Shown here one piece after another: positions 3,801 to 59,828 of a DNA stretch of 64,000 bases. Source of the DNA: a virus (Duplodnaviria > Caudoviricetes); the IMG/VR virus record IMGVR_UViG_3300029288_000129, positions 1 through 64,000 of that record, one strand, 5' to 3'. Below the pieces are notes generated by a model. The model was not told the DNA's origin, did not search any database, and was given only the letters and a program-made list of their open reading frames with translations. The translations under genes and the position numbers were made by a program. Position 1 is the stretch's first letter, and every line of letters begins with the position of its first letter.

Positions 3801-4946
3801 TTAGCCGATGTTCTGCTCCAGATACTGGTTCGCCTGATCCTCGATGCCAAGACTGATACTGCCGAGGCCCCACAGTTTGAACACGGCGTTCATCTGTTGC
3901 GCCGCCGCCTCCGCACTCGGAGCCTTGAACACGAGGTTGACTCCGGCACAGAAGTTATCGCCCCGCAACATCGCGGAATAGTCGGTGCCGGTTATGCCGC
4001 CACCAATGTTCGCGAAACTCCCGTTCCGTATCTGTTGCGGGATCGTGGTGGTGTAAAATGCGAGGTTGTCGTGCGCCGCATATATGCCACCGCTATCACT
4101 CACGCTACCCGTAACGATGGGAGTCACTATAATGGTGGCCGATGTGTCCAGCAGCAGTTTCTTCCACGCATCAATGATCACCACGAGGTTGCCGAGAAAG
4201 TTAATGATGCGGTTAAACATCGCCTTGAGCCGTTCCGACAATAAGTATGCGTTGACCTGCGGAATATACTTTCCTTTCAAGGATTCGAGCCAATCCTTTG
4301 CCGGATCCGCGATGTCGGGGAACAGGTCACCGACACTATACTTCTGCCAGTTGCCCGGAACCGTGGCGTGGGTCCCCGCGATCTGTTTCTTTAGGTAGTG
4401 GCCCCAAAACTCTTCAACAAGATCACCGTAGTCGGTCACTCCGATCAGGCCCTTCAGCGCGTCGAGCCGCGCCGATTCCGCATATTTGAACATGTCTGCG
4501 ATCTGTTGCGCCGCTTGTCTGGCCTGAAACATGTTCTGGTAATTGACCATCAGTATGACCGCGACCATCGCCGCGCCACCCTCATCGTAGGGCCGGTTCG
4601 AGTCGTATTGGTTCTTGAGGTTGGAGTTGAACATGTTGAGGTAAGAGGAAAGCCCGCCTGCCACCGGCGCATCGGTGAGAAGTAACTGGTGGTACGATAT
4701 GTCAAAGGTCTGTATCAGCGCATCGATGGCCGCAGAGATCGCGGTGGCTATGCCCTGTAGCCCCACCAACGCAAAATCGGCCTTCGCTTGCAGGTCCGCT
4801 ACTTTCGCGGCGATATAGACCTCATCCCGCGTTGTCTCCAAAGTATTGTATATCTCCGGAATCGCGTCAAGTATCTTCTGTAAATCCTCACTGCCCTCTA
4901 GCAGGTTGCGGAGATTGATCTGGCCCACAAATACGGGGTTTGTCAT
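3801..4946 (-). CDS. Probable virion/baseplate-region protein
   Basis: 381-aa ORF downstream of the spike cluster; function inferred from position only. Confidence 0.5.
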   Translation of the reverse strand: MTNPVFVGQINLRNLLEGSEDLQKILDAIPEIYNTLETTRDEVYIAAKVADLQAKADFALVGLQGIATAISAAIDALIQTFDISYHQLLLTDAPVAGGLSSYLNMFNSNLKNQYDSNRPYDEGGAAMVAVILMVNYQNMFQARQAAQQIADMFKYAESARLDALKGLIGVTDYGDLVEEFWGHYLKKQIAGTHATVPGNWQKYSVGDLFPDIADPAKDWLESLKGKYIPQVNAYLLSERLKAMFNRIINFLGNLVVIIDAWKKLLLDTSATIIVTPIVTGSVSDSGGIYAAHDNLAFYTTTIPQQIRNGSFANIGGGITGTDYSAMLRGDNFCAGVNLVFKAPSAEAAAQQMNAVFKLWGLGSISLGIEDQANQYLEQNIG

Positions 4947-4953
4947 CTATTTC

Positions 4954-5592
4954 TTACCCTCCTTCGCCACCTTCCCGCATCGGATTTTCTTCATCAAAAA
5001 GAGCGGTTGCGTACTTAAAAATCGATTCCATGATCTCGCCATCAAATCGAACCGAGTTAATTGCCGATTTAACAGGGGCTGTCGCCGCAGGAACATCGGC
5101 ATCGTCGGCAAAAATAACGAGGTCTACCGCGCTCAAAAAACTTGCCGCATAGATATCACTTTCTCTTATCTCCGCGTGTCTGCGGCTGTCTTCAAATTGC
5201 CAATCTCTGTCCAGAAACTTCGCCATTGTTTCCTTGTTGGGATTGTCGCGATACTGCCGTATCATCTCCATGTTCTTTTTCACAGTGTTGTCTTCGGGAT
5301 ATTTTTTTTGGTAGATGGGCATCGCTTGCTCCACAGCGAATATGGCCCAAAGCAACGAACTCCTCGGAGACAACACAAAGTTTATTATGCGGATAAGGTG
5401 TTTGACTTCCTGCAAGTCGTTTCCGCGAGCCGCAGCCTCTACGAGAGACCACATATCTCTCTTCTCTTGCCTGCGGAACCAATCAATGGCATCGCTGTAA
5501 TAGTGCCTGCCATCGGGGTTCTCGTGCTCATGTTTTTTCTGTCTGTCTAGAAAATTCTCTATTTTCTCGTCCATGATCTTTTGTTTTTCCAT
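4954..5592 (-). CDS. Imm5-like helical domain protein
   Basis: WAIFAVEQAMPIYQKKYPEDN resembles the Imm5-like 'AE.VLPIFEK.YP.D' signature. Confidence 0.45.
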   Translation of the reverse strand: MEKQKIMDEKIENFLDRQKKHEHENPDGRHYYSDAIDWFRRQEKRDMWSLVEAAARGNDLQEVKHLIRIINFVLSPRSSLLWAIFAVEQAMPIYQKKYPEDNTVKKNMEMIRQYRDNPNKETMAKFLDRDWQFEDSRRHAEIRESDIYAASFLSAVDLVIFADDADVPAATAPVKSAINSVRFDGEIMESIFKYATALFDEENPMREGGEGG

Positions 5593-5593
5593 C

Positions 5594-6028
5594 TTAGGCC
5601 ACCTTGATATTCACGGGCATTTTCATAACCGCTGTAACCACAACTATGTTGTCGATGGTATCGTGAGGAAACATGGTAGTGCGGCCACAGTTAAGGGGAA
5701 GCCCCTCGAACTTGAGTGCATCGCCCTCAATATGCCACGGAGTATCTTCAATGTGTATGGCGGAATTTTCTTCTACAATCGCGCCGGTCTTCTTCGCCAC
5801 CCCTTCTTTGCGAGCCAACACGGAAAGTCCGATTATTGTCTCTTTGGGATCGCTTACGCCTAGAGACAGCGTAAGGCAAGTCACAAACGGAACGAGATTC
5901 CCTAAAAAATGGACCTCCGCGTCTGTTGCGGACACGCATTCTCCGCCGTTACGAAAAACAATCGTCCATGCTGCCGGTGTTCTTTTTTCTTCTCCCATCT
6001 TGTTCTCCATCATCAAGTTATTAATCAC
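5594..6028 (-). CDS. Hypothetical protein
   Basis: Tightly packed ORF in the minus-strand run. Confidence 0.6.
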   Translation of the reverse strand: MINNLMMENKMGEEKRTPAAWTIVFRNGGECVSATDAEVHFLGNLVPFVTCLTLSLGVSDPKETIIGLSVLARKEGVAKKTGAIVEENSAIHIEDTPWHIEGDALKFEGLPLNCGRTTMFPHDTIDNIVVVTAVMKMPVNIKVA

Positions 6029-54274: not shown

Positions 54275-54312
54275 GGCGAAGTCTGTTGTTCTATAACCAA
54301 GGGAGAAGATTG

Positions 54313-55272
54313 ATGAGCGAGAAAAAGCAAGGCGAGTTGGTAAAGGTGGAGCAGGGGCAGGAACTTTTACTGTCCGGCATGATCGACGAGAAAACGGTAC
54401 GCGACTTTCTGGTTAGTAGCGGCACCGCGTCCAAACTCACCGAGTCGCAGCAAAACCTGTTTATGCTCACCGCGAAGGCCCTTAACCTTAACCCGCTGAA
54501 ACGCGAGATATATGTCACGCCGTATCTCAAGAAGGGGGTTCGTGCCGAAAACGCGAAGCCGGGTGACTATGACATGAGCATCGTGACCGGATACGAGGTC
54601 TATCTGAAACGGGCCGAACGCGCCAAAAACAGTAAGGGCGAGAGAATTTACGACGGATTCGACAAGCCGGAGTTCGAGGGCAAGATCAGGGCTGAAAAGA
54701 AGCCCATCAAGTACAAGGATGATCATGGCCAGTGGAAAGAGTATGAGAAAGATGTGATGTTGGACGCGGACCCGGACGATCCGTTCCGTTGCACCGTGAG
54801 GGTGTGGCGCAAGGACCGGAACCGGCCCACCATTCATACCGTGTATTGGAGCGAGTGTACACAGAACAATGCGATATGGAACGAGAAGCCGCGCACCATG
54901 CTTCGGAAGGTTGCGCTGTGTCAGGCGTTCCGGCTCGCGTTCCCCGACGAGTTCGACGGCATGCCGTATGCGGAAGAAGAGTTGCCGACGGATCGCGGCA
55001 TTATAGAGTCTACGCCCGAACCCAAGAAACTGACCCACGAAACGGCGGCGGCGGCACCGAACCCCGACGAGGCGCGAATCGCCGCGTTGCGTCAGGAGGT
55101 AAAGGATATCGCGCTGGGCCGCAAAATATCGGAAATAAAACTGAACCAAAGCATCGCCCGCAAATATGGGAAAGATGGCATGGCGGTCGAAGACTGCACC
55201 GAGGAACAGTTGAACGAAGTCAAGGATGCTTTGACCGAAACGAAGCCCGCCGACAAAGAGCCGAAGGAGTAG
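54313..55272 (+). CDS. bet: Bet/RecT-family single-strand annealing protein
   Basis: LNPLKREIY, KPRTMLRKVALCQAFRLAFP, MPYAEEEL. Confidence 0.88.
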   Translation: MSEKKQGELVKVEQGQELLLSGMIDEKTVRDFLVSSGTASKLTESQQNLFMLTAKALNLNPLKREIYVTPYLKKGVRAENAKPGDYDMSIVTGYEVYLKRAERAKNSKGERIYDGFDKPEFEGKIRAEKKPIKYKDDHGQWKEYEKDVMLDADPDDPFRCTVRVWRKDRNRPTIHTVYWSECTQNNAIWNEKPRTMLRKVALCQAFRLAFPDEFDGMPYAEEELPTDRGIIESTPEPKKLTHETAAAAPNPDEARIAALRQEVKDIALGRKISEIKLNQSIARKYGKDGMAVEDCTEEQLNEVKDALTETKPADKEPKE

Positions 55273-55275
55273 CCC

Positions 55276-57237
55276 ATGAGCGGATTCGACTTTTCTCCGT
55301 CGCGGATGATAGATTTTAACGAAAAGGAACACCGGTATTTCGTGGATGGCATCGAGCGTCCGTCCGTGTCTCACCTGCTGTCAGAACTCGGTGTCGCGGA
55401 AAAATTCGATGGCGTAAACGCGGGACTCCTCGCGTATCGCGCCTCGCGTGGCAAGCGGATACACTTGGCGAGTCAATACTATAGCCAAGGCGTTCTTGAT
55501 CTTGACAGTGTTGCGCCTGAAGATCGTCCGTTCGTGGACGCGATCATAGCGTTTCATAACGATTTCCCGCGATGGAAAAGCCTGATGCGCGAACGCCGGT
55601 TCTATGTGAAGTGCTTCGACGACGAGGAGCGCGGAGAACTGGGCTACTGCGGCACCATGGACGATGTGATGCTACTGGCTCCGGGACACTATGAGATTCG
55701 GGGTCGGGCCTACGATGTCGGCGAAGACGAGATCGGCCTTTTCGACGACAAGACATCCGCGAGCCTTGCGCCTGCGTATCGGTATCAGGTCAGCGGCGGG
55801 TATCTAAAGGGTATCCGAGAGGGTCTGGACGGAGACGATCTGGACATGCCGTTGATGCAGACTATCTCGACCCTTATCGGCCGACCGGTTCGGAAAATAC
55901 ATTGTTTCATCCGGCATCTTCGGCAGGGCCATTACTTCCTCGTGCCGATTCAAGAAGACGAGACTTATCCGCAGTGGGAACAACTGCTTCGTAAGTTCTT
56001 CTATCCCCGCACCAAACTGGATGTCAAAAAAATGATGAGGAACCAGATCGACATGCCAGACACGGTGGCTCGACGATTGGTTCGCATCAAGGCCATGGAG
56101 GATGCGCTGAAGCCACGAAAGGCGGCGGCTCGGGAAGATGCGGTTAAATTGTTGACCCGTGACGGCATGGAGTTTAACGGAGTCGCCGAGATCGGTGGCC
56201 GCGAAGTCACTTTCAGCAAGAGTTTCGGCGGCTACACGGAGTCTATAGACGACGCGGCGTTTGTGGCCAAACTGTTGGCATGGGACCAGCCGTCTATTAC
56301 CATGACGGAACTTCTCGCGCTACGGGCCTCGTGTAAGGTCAGCGGAGAAACCGAGGGAGCATGGCGGCTCAATGTGGGGAAACCGAAGAAACCGGAAACG
56401 AGCGCGGAAACGAAAGTGCCGGAGCCTCCCAAAGCCGAAGTCATTCCGGCACAGAAGCCGGAAATGAAGCCGGAAGCGAAAACGGAAGCAAGCAGGGAAA
56501 GGAAGGTTTCCGAAACAACGACAGCCGCCACGACCATTGCCGGTAACACACCGACTCAATCGAAAGCCGTGTTCCCTGTCGGCGGACAGCCAAATTCCAC
56601 CCCCGCCGACTTCGTTGTCCCCAAGTCACTGGTGGACGATCTCCGCGAGGTCGCAAACCGCGTCTTTGAGCGGGCCATTATTCGTCGCACCGAGAATGAG
56701 ACATTTAAGGGATGGTCTTTTTCTTCCGAGTTTGAGCATTTCCTGATGGGCCTCGATATGCTGGTCCCCGTAAACACATGGACCGAGGGCATGACAAAGA
56801 ATTTGATCGACGCTTTAATTCGCGAGGAGGTGCGTCGTGAAGAAACGGCGCGTCAACAGAGTCCTCGTTCGGTCAACGAGACTTTAGCCGATGTGCTGGT
56901 GCGTACCGTGATGAGCGCATACGGGGATGACCGGCTCGGCGCACAGAACCGCATCGTTGATTTCTGCCGTGCCAACAAGCGACCGCACGACTTCACTTCT
57001 TTCAGCGATTCGGATCTCCGCGATCTTATCAATAAGATGGGGGCGGCGGCAGCGAACGAAAAGTTTGCGCGGAAGGACGCTGCAACCGTACCCGATGGGG
57101 CCGAATGCGTTCTTTCGGACGAGGGCCATTTGCGGCCACAGCCGGAACCTGCGCCAGAGCCGAAGCCAAGGCCCAAGACACCGGCCAAAACGAAGGCAAA
57201 GAAGGATGACCCGAAACAGCCCGGACTTTTTGATTAG
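55276..57237 (+). CDS. PD-(D/E)XK exonuclease-like protein with long C-terminal extension
   Basis: FNEKEHRY...PSVSHLL, RGKRIH, YCGTMD, FDDKTS, YQVSGGY. Confidence 0.75.
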   Translation: MSGFDFSPSRMIDFNEKEHRYFVDGIERPSVSHLLSELGVAEKFDGVNAGLLAYRASRGKRIHLASQYYSQGVLDLDSVAPEDRPFVDAIIAFHNDFPRWKSLMRERRFYVKCFDDEERGELGYCGTMDDVMLLAPGHYEIRGRAYDVGEDEIGLFDDKTSASLAPAYRYQVSGGYLKGIREGLDGDDLDMPLMQTISTLIGRPVRKIHCFIRHLRQGHYFLVPIQEDETYPQWEQLLRKFFYPRTKLDVKKMMRNQIDMPDTVARRLVRIKAMEDALKPRKAAAREDAVKLLTRDGMEFNGVAEIGGREVTFSKSFGGYTESIDDAAFVAKLLAWDQPSITMTELLALRASCKVSGETEGAWRLNVGKPKKPETSAETKVPEPPKAEVIPAQKPEMKPEAKTEASRERKVSETTTAATTIAGNTPTQSKAVFPVGGQPNSTPADFVVPKSLVDDLREVANRVFERAIIRRTENETFKGWSFSSEFEHFLMGLDMLVPVNTWTEGMTKNLIDALIREEVRREETARQQSPRSVNETLADVLVRTVMSAYGDDRLGAQNRIVDFCRANKRPHDFTSFSDSDLRDLINKMGAAAANEKFARKDAATVPDGAECVLSDEGHLRPQPEPAPEPKPRPKTPAKTKAKKDDPKQPGLFD

Positions 57238-57246
57238 GAGGAACAC

Positions 57247-57507
57247 ATGTTGCAGTTTAAGATCAAGGGCCAAGCCGCAATCCATACTACGCCGAGCAAG
57301 GCCGAGGACGAGAAGAAAAAAAAGGCAAAGAAGATAAAAATGCAGGGCGAGGCACGCAAGATCACCCGTGCGGCAGGCAAGAAAAAAAAGAAAGCGAAAC
57401 CTAACAGTATCGTCAAGCCGCGCACGCCGGAACAGCGGGCAAAGAGTATGGCAAAGAAGAGCAACAAACCACTCAAGGCGGCAAGGGCCGCGAAGAGAAA
57501 GAAATAA
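57247..57507 (+). CDS. Lys/Ala-rich very basic small protein
   Basis: AGGAGG RBS; runs of Lys. Confidence 0.65.
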   Translation: MLQFKIKGQAAIHTTPSKAEDEKKKKAKKIKMQGEARKITRAAGKKKKKAKPNSIVKPRTPEQRAKSMAKKSNKPLKAARAAKRKK

Positions 57508-57513
57508 CAACCA

Positions 57514-58140
57514 ATGGAGACTATGATGGCAAAGAAAAAGGAAGGCGCGTCCTGTATCGAAACAATCCGCAGAACGGTACGGCTCACCGGCATCAAGGAT
57601 GCGATGTTTGACCGCTATGCCGGTGACAACAAAACGAAACTGATGTGGCACCAGAAACTGTACATGATACCCGGCACCAGCATTGTGGCAATGCCGACGA
57701 TCAATATCATGTCGTTTCTGACCGCGCACAACACGAACTCGGCTCCGAAGCGGCTTCGCGACAAGCGGGAGTACAAGGACATCTGCAACGCCTGCCTATC
57801 GTTTGTCAACATCGTGGGGGGCAAGCAGAATCCCGCCTATATCCCGTTTCTCCGCGACGGAGAACCGATAGAGGTCGGCGACTTCGGCGATGAGAGGGAC
57901 GAGAAGAGCGGAGTTTATCTTCACCAATCGGTTGCTCGTCTTCCCCTCGGCATACCGAATCCGAAAGAGCGTCCCGTGCTTCCGTTGCCGTGGGAGATCG
58001 AGTTCGGCCTTGAGATATTCCCCAATAAGGAAATCAAGGAAGTCGAGATACGCAATCTTTTTGAGGAAGGCGGGCTTGCTATTGGCCTCGGGACTTTCCG
58101 TGGCGTGTTTGGCAAATTTATGGTATCCCGTTGGGACTAA
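57514..58140 (+). CDS. RAMP/Cas7-like protein (Vipr-like); likely start 57526
   Basis: N-terminal strand TVRLTGIKDAMF; PKERPVLPLPWEIEF; C-terminal G-rich loop GGLAIGLGTFRGVFGKF; adjacent pentamer array. Confidence 0.75.
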   Translation: METMMAKKKEGASCIETIRRTVRLTGIKDAMFDRYAGDNKTKLMWHQKLYMIPGTSIVAMPTINIMSFLTAHNTNSAPKRLRDKREYKDICNACLSFVNIVGGKQNPAYIPFLRDGEPIEVGDFGDERDEKSGVYLHQSVARLPLGIPNPKERPVLPLPWEIEFGLEIFPNKEIKEVEIRNLFEEGGLAIGLGTFRGVFGKFMVSRWD

Positions 58141-58150
58141 TACTTTTTCT

Positions 58151-58513
58151 GGCGTGGCTTGGCGTGGCTAGGCACGGAAAGGCAAGGCAAGGCACTGCGA
58201 GGCGAGGTTTTTTAGTGACGAAACCGGCATGGCGGGGCTTGGATTGGACAGGCAAGGCAAGGCACTGCGAGGCGAGGTATTTAGTGTGAAAAGCGGCGGG
58301 GCGCGGCGGGGCTCGGTGCGGACAGGAACGGAAAGGTGAGGCGAGGCGAGGTTTTTTAGTGACGAAACCGGCTTGGCGTGGCTAGGCATGGCTAGGCGCG
58401 GAAGGGCAAGGCAAGGCACTGCAAGGCGAGGTTTTTAGTGACGAATAGGGATCGGCATGGCTCGGCAAGGCAGTGCGAGGAGAGGAGAGGACAGGCAAGG
58501 CAAGGCGAGGTAA
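58151..58513 (+). ncRNA. Array of five putative guide RNA units of phased GG(C/A/T)NN pentamers (vrRNA-like)
   Basis: 61 pentamers (57 begin GG, 4 begin TGC) in units of 12/11/12/13/13, separated by TTAGTGACGAAACC-like linkers; starts 10 nt after the RAMP stop. Confidence 0.8.
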
Positions 58514-58516
58514 GAG

Positions 58517-59149
58517 ATGAAACCAAAGAGTACCGACATCATTGACGGGACTCGCTACGAGTTCGACAGCCCCGAGGAGATGTGGTTTGCGTGGTGGCTC
58601 GAAGAGTTGCGACAATACGAGGAGATCGGAGAGTGGCGGTATCAAGCCAAGACATGGCAACTCTCGCGGTCCTGCGACCTCTTGTGGTCCGTACAAGGCG
58701 CAAGGAAGGTGTTGGAGCGGTCGAAGTGCCTGCTCCGTGCCCACTCGTATACCGCCGACTTCTCGGTGCGGTGGCGCAACAAGGATTGGATCAATGTGGA
58801 GACTGCGGAGTGGCGCGAATCGGACGGCAATGATCTTCGCATAGTGCCACCGTACAAACCCGACGCGGTGATGCTTGCCACTGGCTCCGATCTCACCGCG
58901 TATGTGGACATAAAGGGCGGCTTTGTTCGCGGTCATTCAAAGGCGGAAGCGTTTGAGGTGAAGCGCGGCATCGTGTGGGAACAGCACGGCGACTATATCA
59001 ACCGTATCGTTCCCTATACCGCGAAGGGGCCGTGTCTGTTCAAGGCGACCTTTGTGCCGCAACGATTCTTTTTTACCGATAAGGGCCATCAGGCCCGCAA
59101 GATACACTTCCCGGTGCGGCGCATCGAAGAGTGGTTGTCGCCTTTTTAG
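58517..59149 (+). CDS. DUF1064-like PD-(D/E)XK nuclease
   Basis: DGTRYEFDSPEE...YQ...YTADF...YVDIKG. Confidence 0.7.
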   Translation: MKPKSTDIIDGTRYEFDSPEEMWFAWWLEELRQYEEIGEWRYQAKTWQLSRSCDLLWSVQGARKVLERSKCLLRAHSYTADFSVRWRNKDWINVETAEWRESDGNDLRIVPPYKPDAVMLATGSDLTAYVDIKGGFVRGHSKAEAFEVKRGIVWEQHGDYINRIVPYTAKGPCLFKATFVPQRFFFTDKGHQARKIHFPVRRIEEWLSPF

Positions 59150-59423
59150 CGGAGGCTATTATGAAAAAACCGTTCTCGTGGCTAAAGTTTTTCAATGTCG
59201 TTTTGTTTCAGTGGTTTTTTATCCGGCTTTCGAGGTGTGATCAGGAGGCAAAGGTGGGAATCGACCCAGAAATAGGGACGCTGCCTTTGCGTTGGTATTC
59301 TATCACGGGTCTGATGTGGCCTACTACCGGATGGAAAGATGACTATAAGATGCTTTTCAACATGGACCCGTTTTACTGGCGAGTCACGCCGATTATGAGG
59401 CACCAAGATTCTGCGAGGGCGAG

Positions 59424-59828
59424 ATGAGCCGCTACGAAGAACTATTCCCGTATTGGCCGTTCGGCCGCGCCATACTGCCGTTTCTGATCGATTCAATGGG
59501 CCGCGAGATCGACTGTGCCGCGATTATTCCGCTTAAAAACGCTCGTGGTGTGTTTTTTGTTTTGGACAAATCTTGTTTTTACAAACTATGCCAGCAGTAT
59601 ATTCCGCCGGATCATATAAGGACATTTCAGCGTTGCATAGATATGATGATATCTGAAATATATAAGAAGTGTCGTCAAGAGGTGACTGACATTCTTAATC
59701 ATTGCGGATGTGACGCTCTTGGCTCTACCATAGATGTTGCCGCCGAGAAAATGATGTCAAAAATGATTTTGAGCGGCGATCCTCGGGTGAAAACATCATT
59801 GCGACAACACTGTGCATTGGAGGAATAG
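59424..59828 (+). CDS. Hypothetical protein
   Basis: Coupled ORF. Confidence 0.5.
   Translation: MSRYEELFPYWPFGRAILPFLIDSMGREIDCAAIIPLKNARGVFFVLDKSCFYKLCQQYIPPDHIRTFQRCIDMMISEIYKKCRQEVTDILNHCGCDALGSTIDVAAEKMMSKMILSGDPRVKTSLRQHCALEE

Follow-up and report, generated by a model that had tools for sequence, protein, structure and literature searches.

A solitary Cas7-like protein gene and its five-unit pentamer array very probably form a phage-borne VIPR system

The stretch of DNA described here, which we call the window, comprises 64,000 nucleotides (nt), positions 1 to 64,000 of the IMG/VR virus record IMGVR_UViG_3300029288_000129, and our subject within it is a gene, vipr, together with the array of five-base repeats that follows it on the same strand. 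The whole record is a linear virus contig of 89.8 kb with a guanine-cytosine (GC) content of 54.5% and an estimated completeness of 77%. The vipr gene (57514-58140, plus strand) encodes a solitary RAMP (Cas7-like) protein, whose longest open reading frame (ORF) has 208 amino acids (aa) and the C-terminal end GGLAIGLGTFRGVFGKFMVSRWD. Ten nt past its stop codon begins an array of 363 bp (58151-58513), all five units of which lie 3' of vipr; each unit is a run of pentamers in which a nearly fixed triplet is followed by two variable bases (NN). An interpretation made from the letters alone, hereafter the sequence-only reading, had placed a RAMP-type protein of about 205 aa and a 363-bp array here, and had likened the pair to VIPR (Viral Interference Programmable Repeat) systems, in which Vipr is combined with GGY/NN RNAs. 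Both features were recovered, the five units and their NN strings being reproduced exactly by an in-phase scan, and this picture of VIPR agrees with three published descriptions (10.64898/2026.04.26.720920, 10.64898/2026.04.26.720927, 10.64898/2026.10.15.759431), the last of which covers VIPR biology in E. coli along with a target caller and null models.

Depending on the start codon chosen (57514 versus 57523/57526, with the stop codon at 58138-58140), the vipr product measures 204 to 208 aa. The true start is probably 57523/57526, which would give a product of 204-205 aa, because 204 aa is the usual length among homologues and the ATG at 57526 is preceded, at 6-7 nt, by a GGAG. When the protein was compared as a single sequence with 177,635 PDB sequences, the sole significant match was 36pp, 'SUSP1 Vipr protein' (E = 5e-3), and the same match reached E = 1.8e-9 when the query was a family profile of 87 diverse homologues. 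Alignment by hhalign to the Vipr of phage wV8, a relative of SUSP1, gave a probability of 97.1% (E = 6e-11). At a relaxed E value, tblastn matched 120 phage records, 119 of them weakly, and nearly all of the weak matches belong to Felixounavirus-type phages of Escherichia, Salmonella and Shigella, which are SUSP1 relatives. Searches of Pfam and NCBIfam, Cas7 models included, returned no match, and the only PHROGs match was phrog_4652, to which no function is assigned. An AF2 model from the single sequence had a pLDDT of 33 and was replaced by a model built on the 87-sequence alignment, which reached 95.8; its best structural matches, at least 30 of them, are RNA-targeting type III/VII Cas7 subunits with sequence identities of 7-14%. 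Fold and homology were thus both obtained directly, and the comparison that the sequence-only reading had asked for identifies the protein, by homology, as a Vipr related to the solved Vipr of SUSP1.

At the residue level, an HMMER alignment pairs R138, W178, R179, D177 and F182-G183 of SUSP1 Vipr with R153, F195, R196, T194 and F199-G200 here. R153 (codon at 57970-57972, plus strand) is the thumb arginine, and the G-loop (G187-F202, GLAIGLGTFRGVFGKF, coding segment 58079-58120, plus strand) aligns between the two proteins as GVGDWRPRFGRF against GLGTFRGVFGKF. Both R153 and G200 are invariant in the alignment of 87 homologues, in which G187, G191, G193, R196 and F202 are each at least 90% conserved. 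In the SUSP1 structure, the first G of a repeat is contacted by H17 and D177, the second by R138 and W178, and the pocket for the pyrimidine at position 3 (Y3) is lined by R179 and others (10.64898/2026.04.26.720927). The SUSP1 residues that hold G2 and Y3 (the thumb arginine, the G-loop aromatic and the G-loop arginine) are kept or conservatively replaced here, as R153, F195 and R196. Elsewhere in the protein, just past strand beta-1, residues 31-35 (57604-57618 of the window) form an MFDRY motif in which F32-D33 is at least 90% conserved across the 87 diverse homologues and M31-F32-D33-R34-Y35 is invariant in a closer set.

We delimited the array by scanning for consecutive GG-initial pentamers in a single phase, which yielded five successive units, all on the plus strand. 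U1 (58151-58225) consists of 12 pentamers (58151-58210; NN = GT TT GT TA AC AA AA AA AC GA GA TT) followed by the 15-nt linker TTTAGTGACGAAACC, and U2 (58226-58294) of 11 pentamers (58226-58280; NN = AT GG TT TT CA AA AA AC GA GA AT) followed by the 14-nt linker TTAGTGTGAAAAGC. U3 (58295-58369) has 12 pentamers (58295-58354; NN = GG GC GG TC GC CA AC AA GA GA GA TT) and the same 15-nt linker as U1. The 13 pentamers of U4 (58370-58448; pentamers at 58370-58434; NN = TT GT TA AT TA GC AG AA AA AC AA GA TT), a paralogue of U1, are followed by the 14-nt linker TTAGTGACGAATAG, and U5 (58449-58513) ends without a linker after 13 pentamers (NN = TC AT TC AA AG GA GA GA CA AA AA GA AA). The 5-nt phase, which had been described as strict, holds inside the units and not across the array, where the T-rich linkers of 15, 14, 15 and 14 nt move the phase by one base at two of the four junctions.

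This anatomy departs strongly from chance. The window was shuffled 100 times under a second-order Markov model, and the longest in-phase GG run per shuffle averaged 4.7 pentamers and never exceeded 8, compared with observed runs of 10-12, five in succession; the rest of the 89.8-kb record contains no such run above 6. Position 2 of the pentamer is G in 61/61 cases and the last two bases are mixed, while the triplets comprise 39 GGC, 11 GGA, 7 GGT and 4 TGC, so that GGY accounts for 75%. The only periodicities at the array are 5 nt and ~75-79 nt. U1 and U2 have the block GGCAA GGCAA GGCAC TGCGA GGCGA in common, which in the form GGCAA GGCAA GGCAC TGC(G/A)A GGCGA extends to U4, and each of the five units terminates in GGC(G/A)A GGC(G/A)A GG(T)nn. 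Predicted folding of the unit RNAs did not differ significantly from that of shuffled sequences (z from -1.8 to +1.9; U1, -0.23; U3, +1.89), and a 6-bp GGUUUU/GAAACC hairpin forms in U1 and U3 only. No promoter or terminator signal was detected within the array. At its 3' margin, the end of U5, GGCAA GGCAA GGCGA GGTAA plus GAG (58489-58519), makes up a purine-rich stretch ahead of the ATG at 58517, an arrangement repeated in the two closest relatives (...GGCGA GGCAA GAG ATG); with Vipr bound to U5 on an operon mRNA, access to the ribosome-binding site ahead of that ATG could be blocked.

The pairing of vipr with an array is a property of the family. We assembled 97 loci with homologues 37-75% identical to this Vipr, drawn from IMG/VR, GTDB genomes and one cultured phage, and counted as an array any run of at least seven in-phase GG pentamers. 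Arrays were present at 97/97 loci, which bears out the expectation that homologues have adjacent arrays, and comprised 220 runs in total. We observed directly that every run lies on the vipr strand (220/220, with none on the opposite strand), and 209/220 fall within 1 kb of vipr on its 5' or 3' side, a 48-fold enrichment in density. The number of units and their side relative to vipr vary among the loci, and in many of the relatives 15-25 nt separate the end of the array from the vipr start codon that follows it. Clustered at 90% identity, the family as a whole comprises at least 2732 clusters, and at 50% identity at least 264 (E <= 1e-3); sources of the clade are mostly soil, sediment and Burkholderiales-type prophages, and the nearest named homologues come from Paraburkholderia, Burkholderia, Castellaniella, Candidimonas and various metagenome-assembled genomes.

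Across 199 distinct runs of this clade, position 3 is C in 84%, A in 8%, T in 6% and G in 3%, while positions 4-5 are nearly evenly mixed. TGC and AGC triplets recur across these runs as well. The GGA and TGC triplets, which the sequence-only reading had suspected of marking a variant, are therefore normal for the clade, whose scaffold admits somewhat more variation than SUSP1-type GGY. The NN pairs themselves are not uniform along a unit. Family-wide, in the pentamers that stand second and third from the 3' end, AA or GA accounts for ~70% of the NN pairs, compared with 18% in the array body, and the bias fades toward the 5' side. Because of this bias, the last two to four pentamers of each unit look like scaffold or handle and not guide information, so that the guide content would amount to ~8-10 informative dinucleotides per unit. 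The proposal that the entire NN string acts as a non-contiguous guide therefore agrees with the published system in its principle, though probably not for these last pentamers.

The closest relatives, L123 and L124, encode a Vipr 87% identical to the one described here within flanking DNA of ~80% identity. Their arrays have three units in place of five; the GGC scaffold and the unit ends are the same, but the NN strings are unrelated. This turnover of the NN strings was observed directly and is the signature expected of guide turnover. Two further runs deserve mention as observations in their own right. In another relative (L127, positions 13-87), a run of 12 GG pentamers lies directly 5' of a 228-aa homologue of the gene that follows the array; the run sits at the contig end, where any vipr would be cut off. 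In Escherichia phage wV8 (NC_012749.1), GGT/GGC-NN pentamer runs (positions 1340-1420 of locus L129) lie 5' of its vipr, gp096, which is annotated as 'hypothetical protein', and the intergenic regions on its flanks carry direct repeats (DR_4) in the annotation of the record. The vipr genes in GenBank phage records remain without annotation as such.

The genes around vipr and the array form a plus-strand operon with tiny gaps, in the order RecT, a 653-aa protein, an 86-aa protein, vipr, the array, a 210-aa gene and further genes that include an HD phosphohydrolase. RecT (54286-55272, plus strand) is a member of this recombination operon, and the 653-aa protein (55276-57237, plus strand) is exonuclease-like in its N-terminal ~170 residues (PHROG 298, E = 5e-4), with a long low-complexity Pro/Lys-rich C-terminal part that is conserved in relatives (655-728 aa). 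The lysine-rich 86-aa gene (57247-57507, plus strand) and the 210-aa gene (58517-59149, plus strand) mark the 5' and 3' boundaries. The 210-aa protein matches PHROG 190 (Holliday junction resolvase) only weakly and in part (E = 1.5e-5), and it has only 7 homologues among 5.8 billion clusters.

We considered these two flanking genes as candidate accessory (vap) genes and rejected them. Neither is found at the 97 vipr loci, where no gene neighbouring vipr here recurs apart from one weak RecT match (27% identity) at a single locus, and where no cluster of non-vipr genes is common to more than 11 loci; both also occur without vipr in L126, a Logan contig of 52.7 kb from a more distant relative of this phage. 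There (4639-5663), exonuclease-like, basic, 220-aa and HD genes follow one another in the same order without vipr or array, and the basic gene (56% identical to the 86-aa protein) abuts or overlaps the start of the 220-aa gene, leaving a clean empty site. Because L126 has the same backbone genes without vipr or array, the sequence comparison indicates that vipr and its array are a self-contained cassette of ~1 kb, observed directly in its occupied and empty forms, and that the flanking genes are phage backbone and not vap.

The absence of other cas genes, as claimed in the sequence-only reading, extends to the full 89.8-kb record, in which we found no Cas1 (PF01867), no second RAMP or vipr-like gene and no repeat-spacer array. 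Among public sequencing runs, one landfill metagenome contains 98% of the sampled words of the phage and may be its source, and four soil runs from another study contain ~63%; no RNA run is among those listed as containing it. At the start of the window, a 6-nt repeat (consensus ACCGGA/ACCGTA, 18-nt super-period, 86-88% matches) fills positions 2-158 in ~26 copies and runs off the record end; it may belong to the coding sequence of a truncated gene or represent a terminal feature.

We searched for targets with the rule that one base is skipped after each pair (NN-x-NN-x...) and a threshold of at least 80% NN match, using exact gapped patterns for the scans of IMG/VR and the Joint Genome Institute (JGI) metagenomes. 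The phage's own record holds no self-target at 80% or above; its best sites match 15-18 of 22-26, no better than with skips of zero or two bases. No guide match reached 80% in the 97 related loci or in L123-L127. In IMG/VR, the exact patterns of U2, U3 and U5 had no matches, and the U3 pattern likewise had none in JGI metagenome contigs. The 18-base pattern of U1 had 11 IMG/VR matches (6 distinct sequences), which we attribute to chance: they lie in DNA of 27-35% GC, and 1-3 of the next six NN match. The sole U4 match in JGI contigs (L125) extends by 2/6 and is also put down to chance. In a separate search, one guide of a Paraburkholderia prophage (30 specified bases, at most three mismatches) had no match among the genomes searched, 301 of its family.

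One match stood out and was examined further. In L098, an IMG/VR contig of 107.6 kb, a 20-base match of U4 extends to 25/26 NN, and U1 matches 20/24 at the same site. We rejected it as a firm target. The skipped base falls at codon position 1, not at the wobble position, of a minus-strand ORF without family assignment; the contig has 38% GC against 54.5% in the phage; six loci orthologous to the site (~40% identity) lack it; and no other guide matches the contig. Judged from the U1 and L125 results, ~0.3-1 exact 20-base matches are expected by chance, and among ~8 chance matches the probability of one 5/6 extension is ~0.05-0.1. The 25/26 match is probably fortuitous, and we give only a small chance to L098 being a real target. 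Contigs from four landfill and soil runs that contain the phage matched L098 only elsewhere, over 60-90 nt at ~80-93%, leaving the site uncovered. Separately, three segments of this contig (L098:2690-2755, 4680-4840 and 5166-5260) attract very many metagenome contigs at ~80-93% likeness and look like conserved small genes, possibly tRNAs; the contig belongs to a large phage and is estimated to be 29% complete.

We hold with high confidence that the locus is a phage-borne VIPR system composed of vipr and five genes for guide RNAs (vrRNAs). According to the primary account, Vipr is a RAMP protein that stands alone and occurs chiefly in phages and proviruses. Each vrRNA comprises 9-16 pentamers, GGY triplets and hypervariable NN pairs taking turns, and then a constant tail. 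The complex silences transcription, its NN bases reading double-stranded DNA with a single base skipped per repeat, and competing satellites and prophages are its natural targets (10.64898/2026.04.26.720920). Cryo-electron microscopy has shown each repeat bound by a single protomer, with GGY sequestered and NN presented (10.64898/2026.04.26.720927). The units here, with 11-13 pentamers, lie inside the published range, and their absence of self-structure is as expected for a protein-coated tract. The kind of system is therefore one already published and not a new class, and its clade is distant from the studied type II.

By analogy with the SUSP1 and P. fulva preprints, from which we take ribonucleoprotein assembly, the one-base-skip DNA code and silencing, one Vipr protomer would occupy each pentamer, its G-loop and thumb gripping GGC and leaving the two variable bases exposed, so that each unit would carry a filament of 11-13 protomers. 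The exposed dinucleotides would read double-stranded DNA in the pattern NN-x-NN-x..., and the bound site, of ~30-38 bp, would be transcriptionally silenced. The 'DNA or RNA' of the sequence-only reading would accordingly narrow to double-stranded DNA, the published target. Competing phages, satellites or prophages of the same host would be the targets to expect. Co-transcription, unit maturation and handle function are our own additions to this scheme: the array may be transcribed together with the recombination operon, and the 3' AA/GA pentamers with the short U-rich linker probably serve as a constant handle and unit-separation site in place of the pseudoknotted tail of SUSP1.

Several points weigh against this assignment. 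Homology to the studied type II protein is confined to the C-terminal 55-110 residues, with H17 and K33 of SUSP1 sitting in an N-terminal part outside the alignable region, and D177, a G1 contact in SUSP1, is T194 here. The triplets, at 18% GGA and 7% TGC, are looser than the published GGY, and the Y3 pocket of SUSP1 excludes purines (10.64898/2026.04.26.720927). Folding of the units revealed no structured 3' tail and no pseudoknot, an Rfam scan of 57000-59500 (E <= 10) found no hammerhead, ribozyme or other family, and the flanks of the 97 loci contain no conserved vap gene beside vipr. In all collections scanned, the one-base-skip rule yielded no convincing natural target. The published account nonetheless describes seven VIPR types with variable array architecture and accessory genes, allows for repeats of a 'related consensus' with internal degeneracy, and includes stand-alone vipr genes (10.64898/2026.04.26.720920). 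The peculiarities of the present locus (no vap, no structured tail, a 3' AA/GA block and a GGC-dominated, A-tolerant scaffold) fit the diversity that this preprint sketches.

A bolder version of the VIPR assignment, which we regard as speculative, is that the vap-less GGC-scaffold clade is a mechanistically distinct variant. Such a variant would dispense with a structured tail, its guides being cut from the operon mRNA at U-rich linkers with the Vipr footprint setting the units. The AA/GA block would act as an assembly or capping handle, the pocket would tolerate A at position 3, and the overlap of U5 with the ribosome-binding site of the next gene would tie expression of that gene to guide loading. 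With their six-pentamer common block, U1, U2 and U4 would together cover allelic variants of a single target site.

Among the alternatives, the one that survives best, though we judge it improbable, keeps the locus VIPR-like and has the vap-less GGC clade bind or cleave RNA instead of double-stranded DNA, in the manner of type III Csm3/Cmr4, its closest structural relatives, which both measure and cleave target RNA. The top structural matches of the model, all RNA-targeting Cas7 subunits, point in this direction, as does D33 of the MFDRY motif, just past strand beta-1 and at least 90% conserved in the 87 homologues. The catalytic Asp of Csm3 lies in a region that may be comparable to that of D33. 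The evidence for DNA targeting in the preprints, moreover, comes from type II systems only. On the other side, all published VIPR types have been taken to act on DNA, their predicted targets lying on both strands, and the conserved D33 may be merely structural or RNA-binding.

Less probable still is a reading of the tract as a structural or regulatory element, either prone to G-quadruplex formation or serving as a platform that regulates the 210-aa gene, with Vipr as an autoregulatory RNA-binding protein. Two-tetrad G-quadruplexes can in principle arise where GG recurs every 5 nt; U5 ends 3 nt ahead of the downstream start codon and overlaps the likely ribosome-binding site, as also in L123 and L124; and in many relatives the array stops shortly (15-25 nt) before the vipr start codon. 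This explanation would nevertheless leave unaccounted for the full turnover of NN on a fixed GGC scaffold between close relatives and the occurrence of arrays on either side of vipr in varying unit numbers. It is further opposed by the reprogrammable, NN-dependent DNA targeting that homologous systems display in experiments and by the occurrence of the downstream gene without an array in L126. The weakest candidate, a degenerate type III/IV-like CRISPR-Cas remnant made of a decayed CRISPR array and an orphan Cas7, can appeal to the phage-borne Cas7/Csm3 fold and is scarcely credible, being effectively refuted by the array anatomy, with periods of 5 nt and ~75-79 nt only and no 25-40 nt direct repeats with spacers, and opposed as well by a record without Cas1 or another RAMP, by a family (more than 2700 clusters) that is consistently solitary and always with pentamer arrays, and by a sequence that matches Vipr and no Cas7 family in Pfam or NCBIfam.

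The first descriptions of VIPR date from 2026 and the systems studied so far are two, both of type II; the present locus is a further natural example, clearly bounded, and comes from another clade, which is very large. Its make-up is minimal: one protein gene and a five-guide array in ~1 kb, with no accessory gene, no structured tail and permissive triplets. While it leaves the overall picture of VIPR unchanged, it is of use for mapping the minimal requirements of these systems and for choosing compact variants. The most informative question is what this phage silences.

Compared with type II VIPR (Escherichia phage SUSP1 and a Pseudomonas fulva prophage; PDB 36pp), the locus has in common a solitary RAMP protein of ~20 kDa with homologous thumb and G-loop, multi-unit guides of 9-16 pentamers beside vipr on the same strand with fixed GG(C/T) and variable NN, and a phage-encoded setting without cas genes and without self-targets. 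The protein similarity is limited to the C-terminal third to half, at 25% identity (tblastn E 0.2-0.5; profile E ~1e-9 to 1e-10). The scaffold here is dominated by GGC, with 18% GGA and 7% TGC, in contrast to the GGT/GGC of the SUSP1 type. In place of a pseudoknotted tail of ~35-40 nt there is a U-rich linker of 14-15 nt with no conserved fold; that pseudoknot has been described for one clade only, and its lack here is a clade difference. Unlike type II, moreover, the locus has constant 3' pentamers (NN = AA/GA), no vap1-like gene and all five units 3' of vipr. With regard to types I and III-VII, a vap-less vipr with short-linker arrays fits the stated diversity (10.64898/2026.04.26.720920). 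Other VIPR types include single-vrRNA, ribozyme-interspersed and staggered arrays, whereas the units here have no hammerhead between them and are separated by linkers, not joined by overlaps.

The locus also differs from class 1 CRISPR-Cas. The Csm3, Cmr4 and Cas7 subunits of those systems follow a 6-nt period with one base flipped, whereas the period here is 5 nt, with three bases sequestered and a non-contiguous guide, and the locus has no CRISPR repeat handle, Cas6, Cas10, Cas5, small subunit or adaptation genes. The closest comparison among cultured phages is Burkholderia phage vB_E436 (PQ789831.1), the only such relative found in the phage collection, which encodes a Vipr homologue 67.5% identical to that described here among genes annotated as 'hypothetical protein'. 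Its array is a single run of 15 GGC/GGA-NN pentamers that ends in GGCGA GGCGA GGGCT and lies 5' of vipr, in contrast to the five units 3' of vipr in the present phage. vB_E436 is temperate, with an integrase, and its vipr occupies a neighbourhood of recombination genes with an exonuclease on the 5' side, as it does here.

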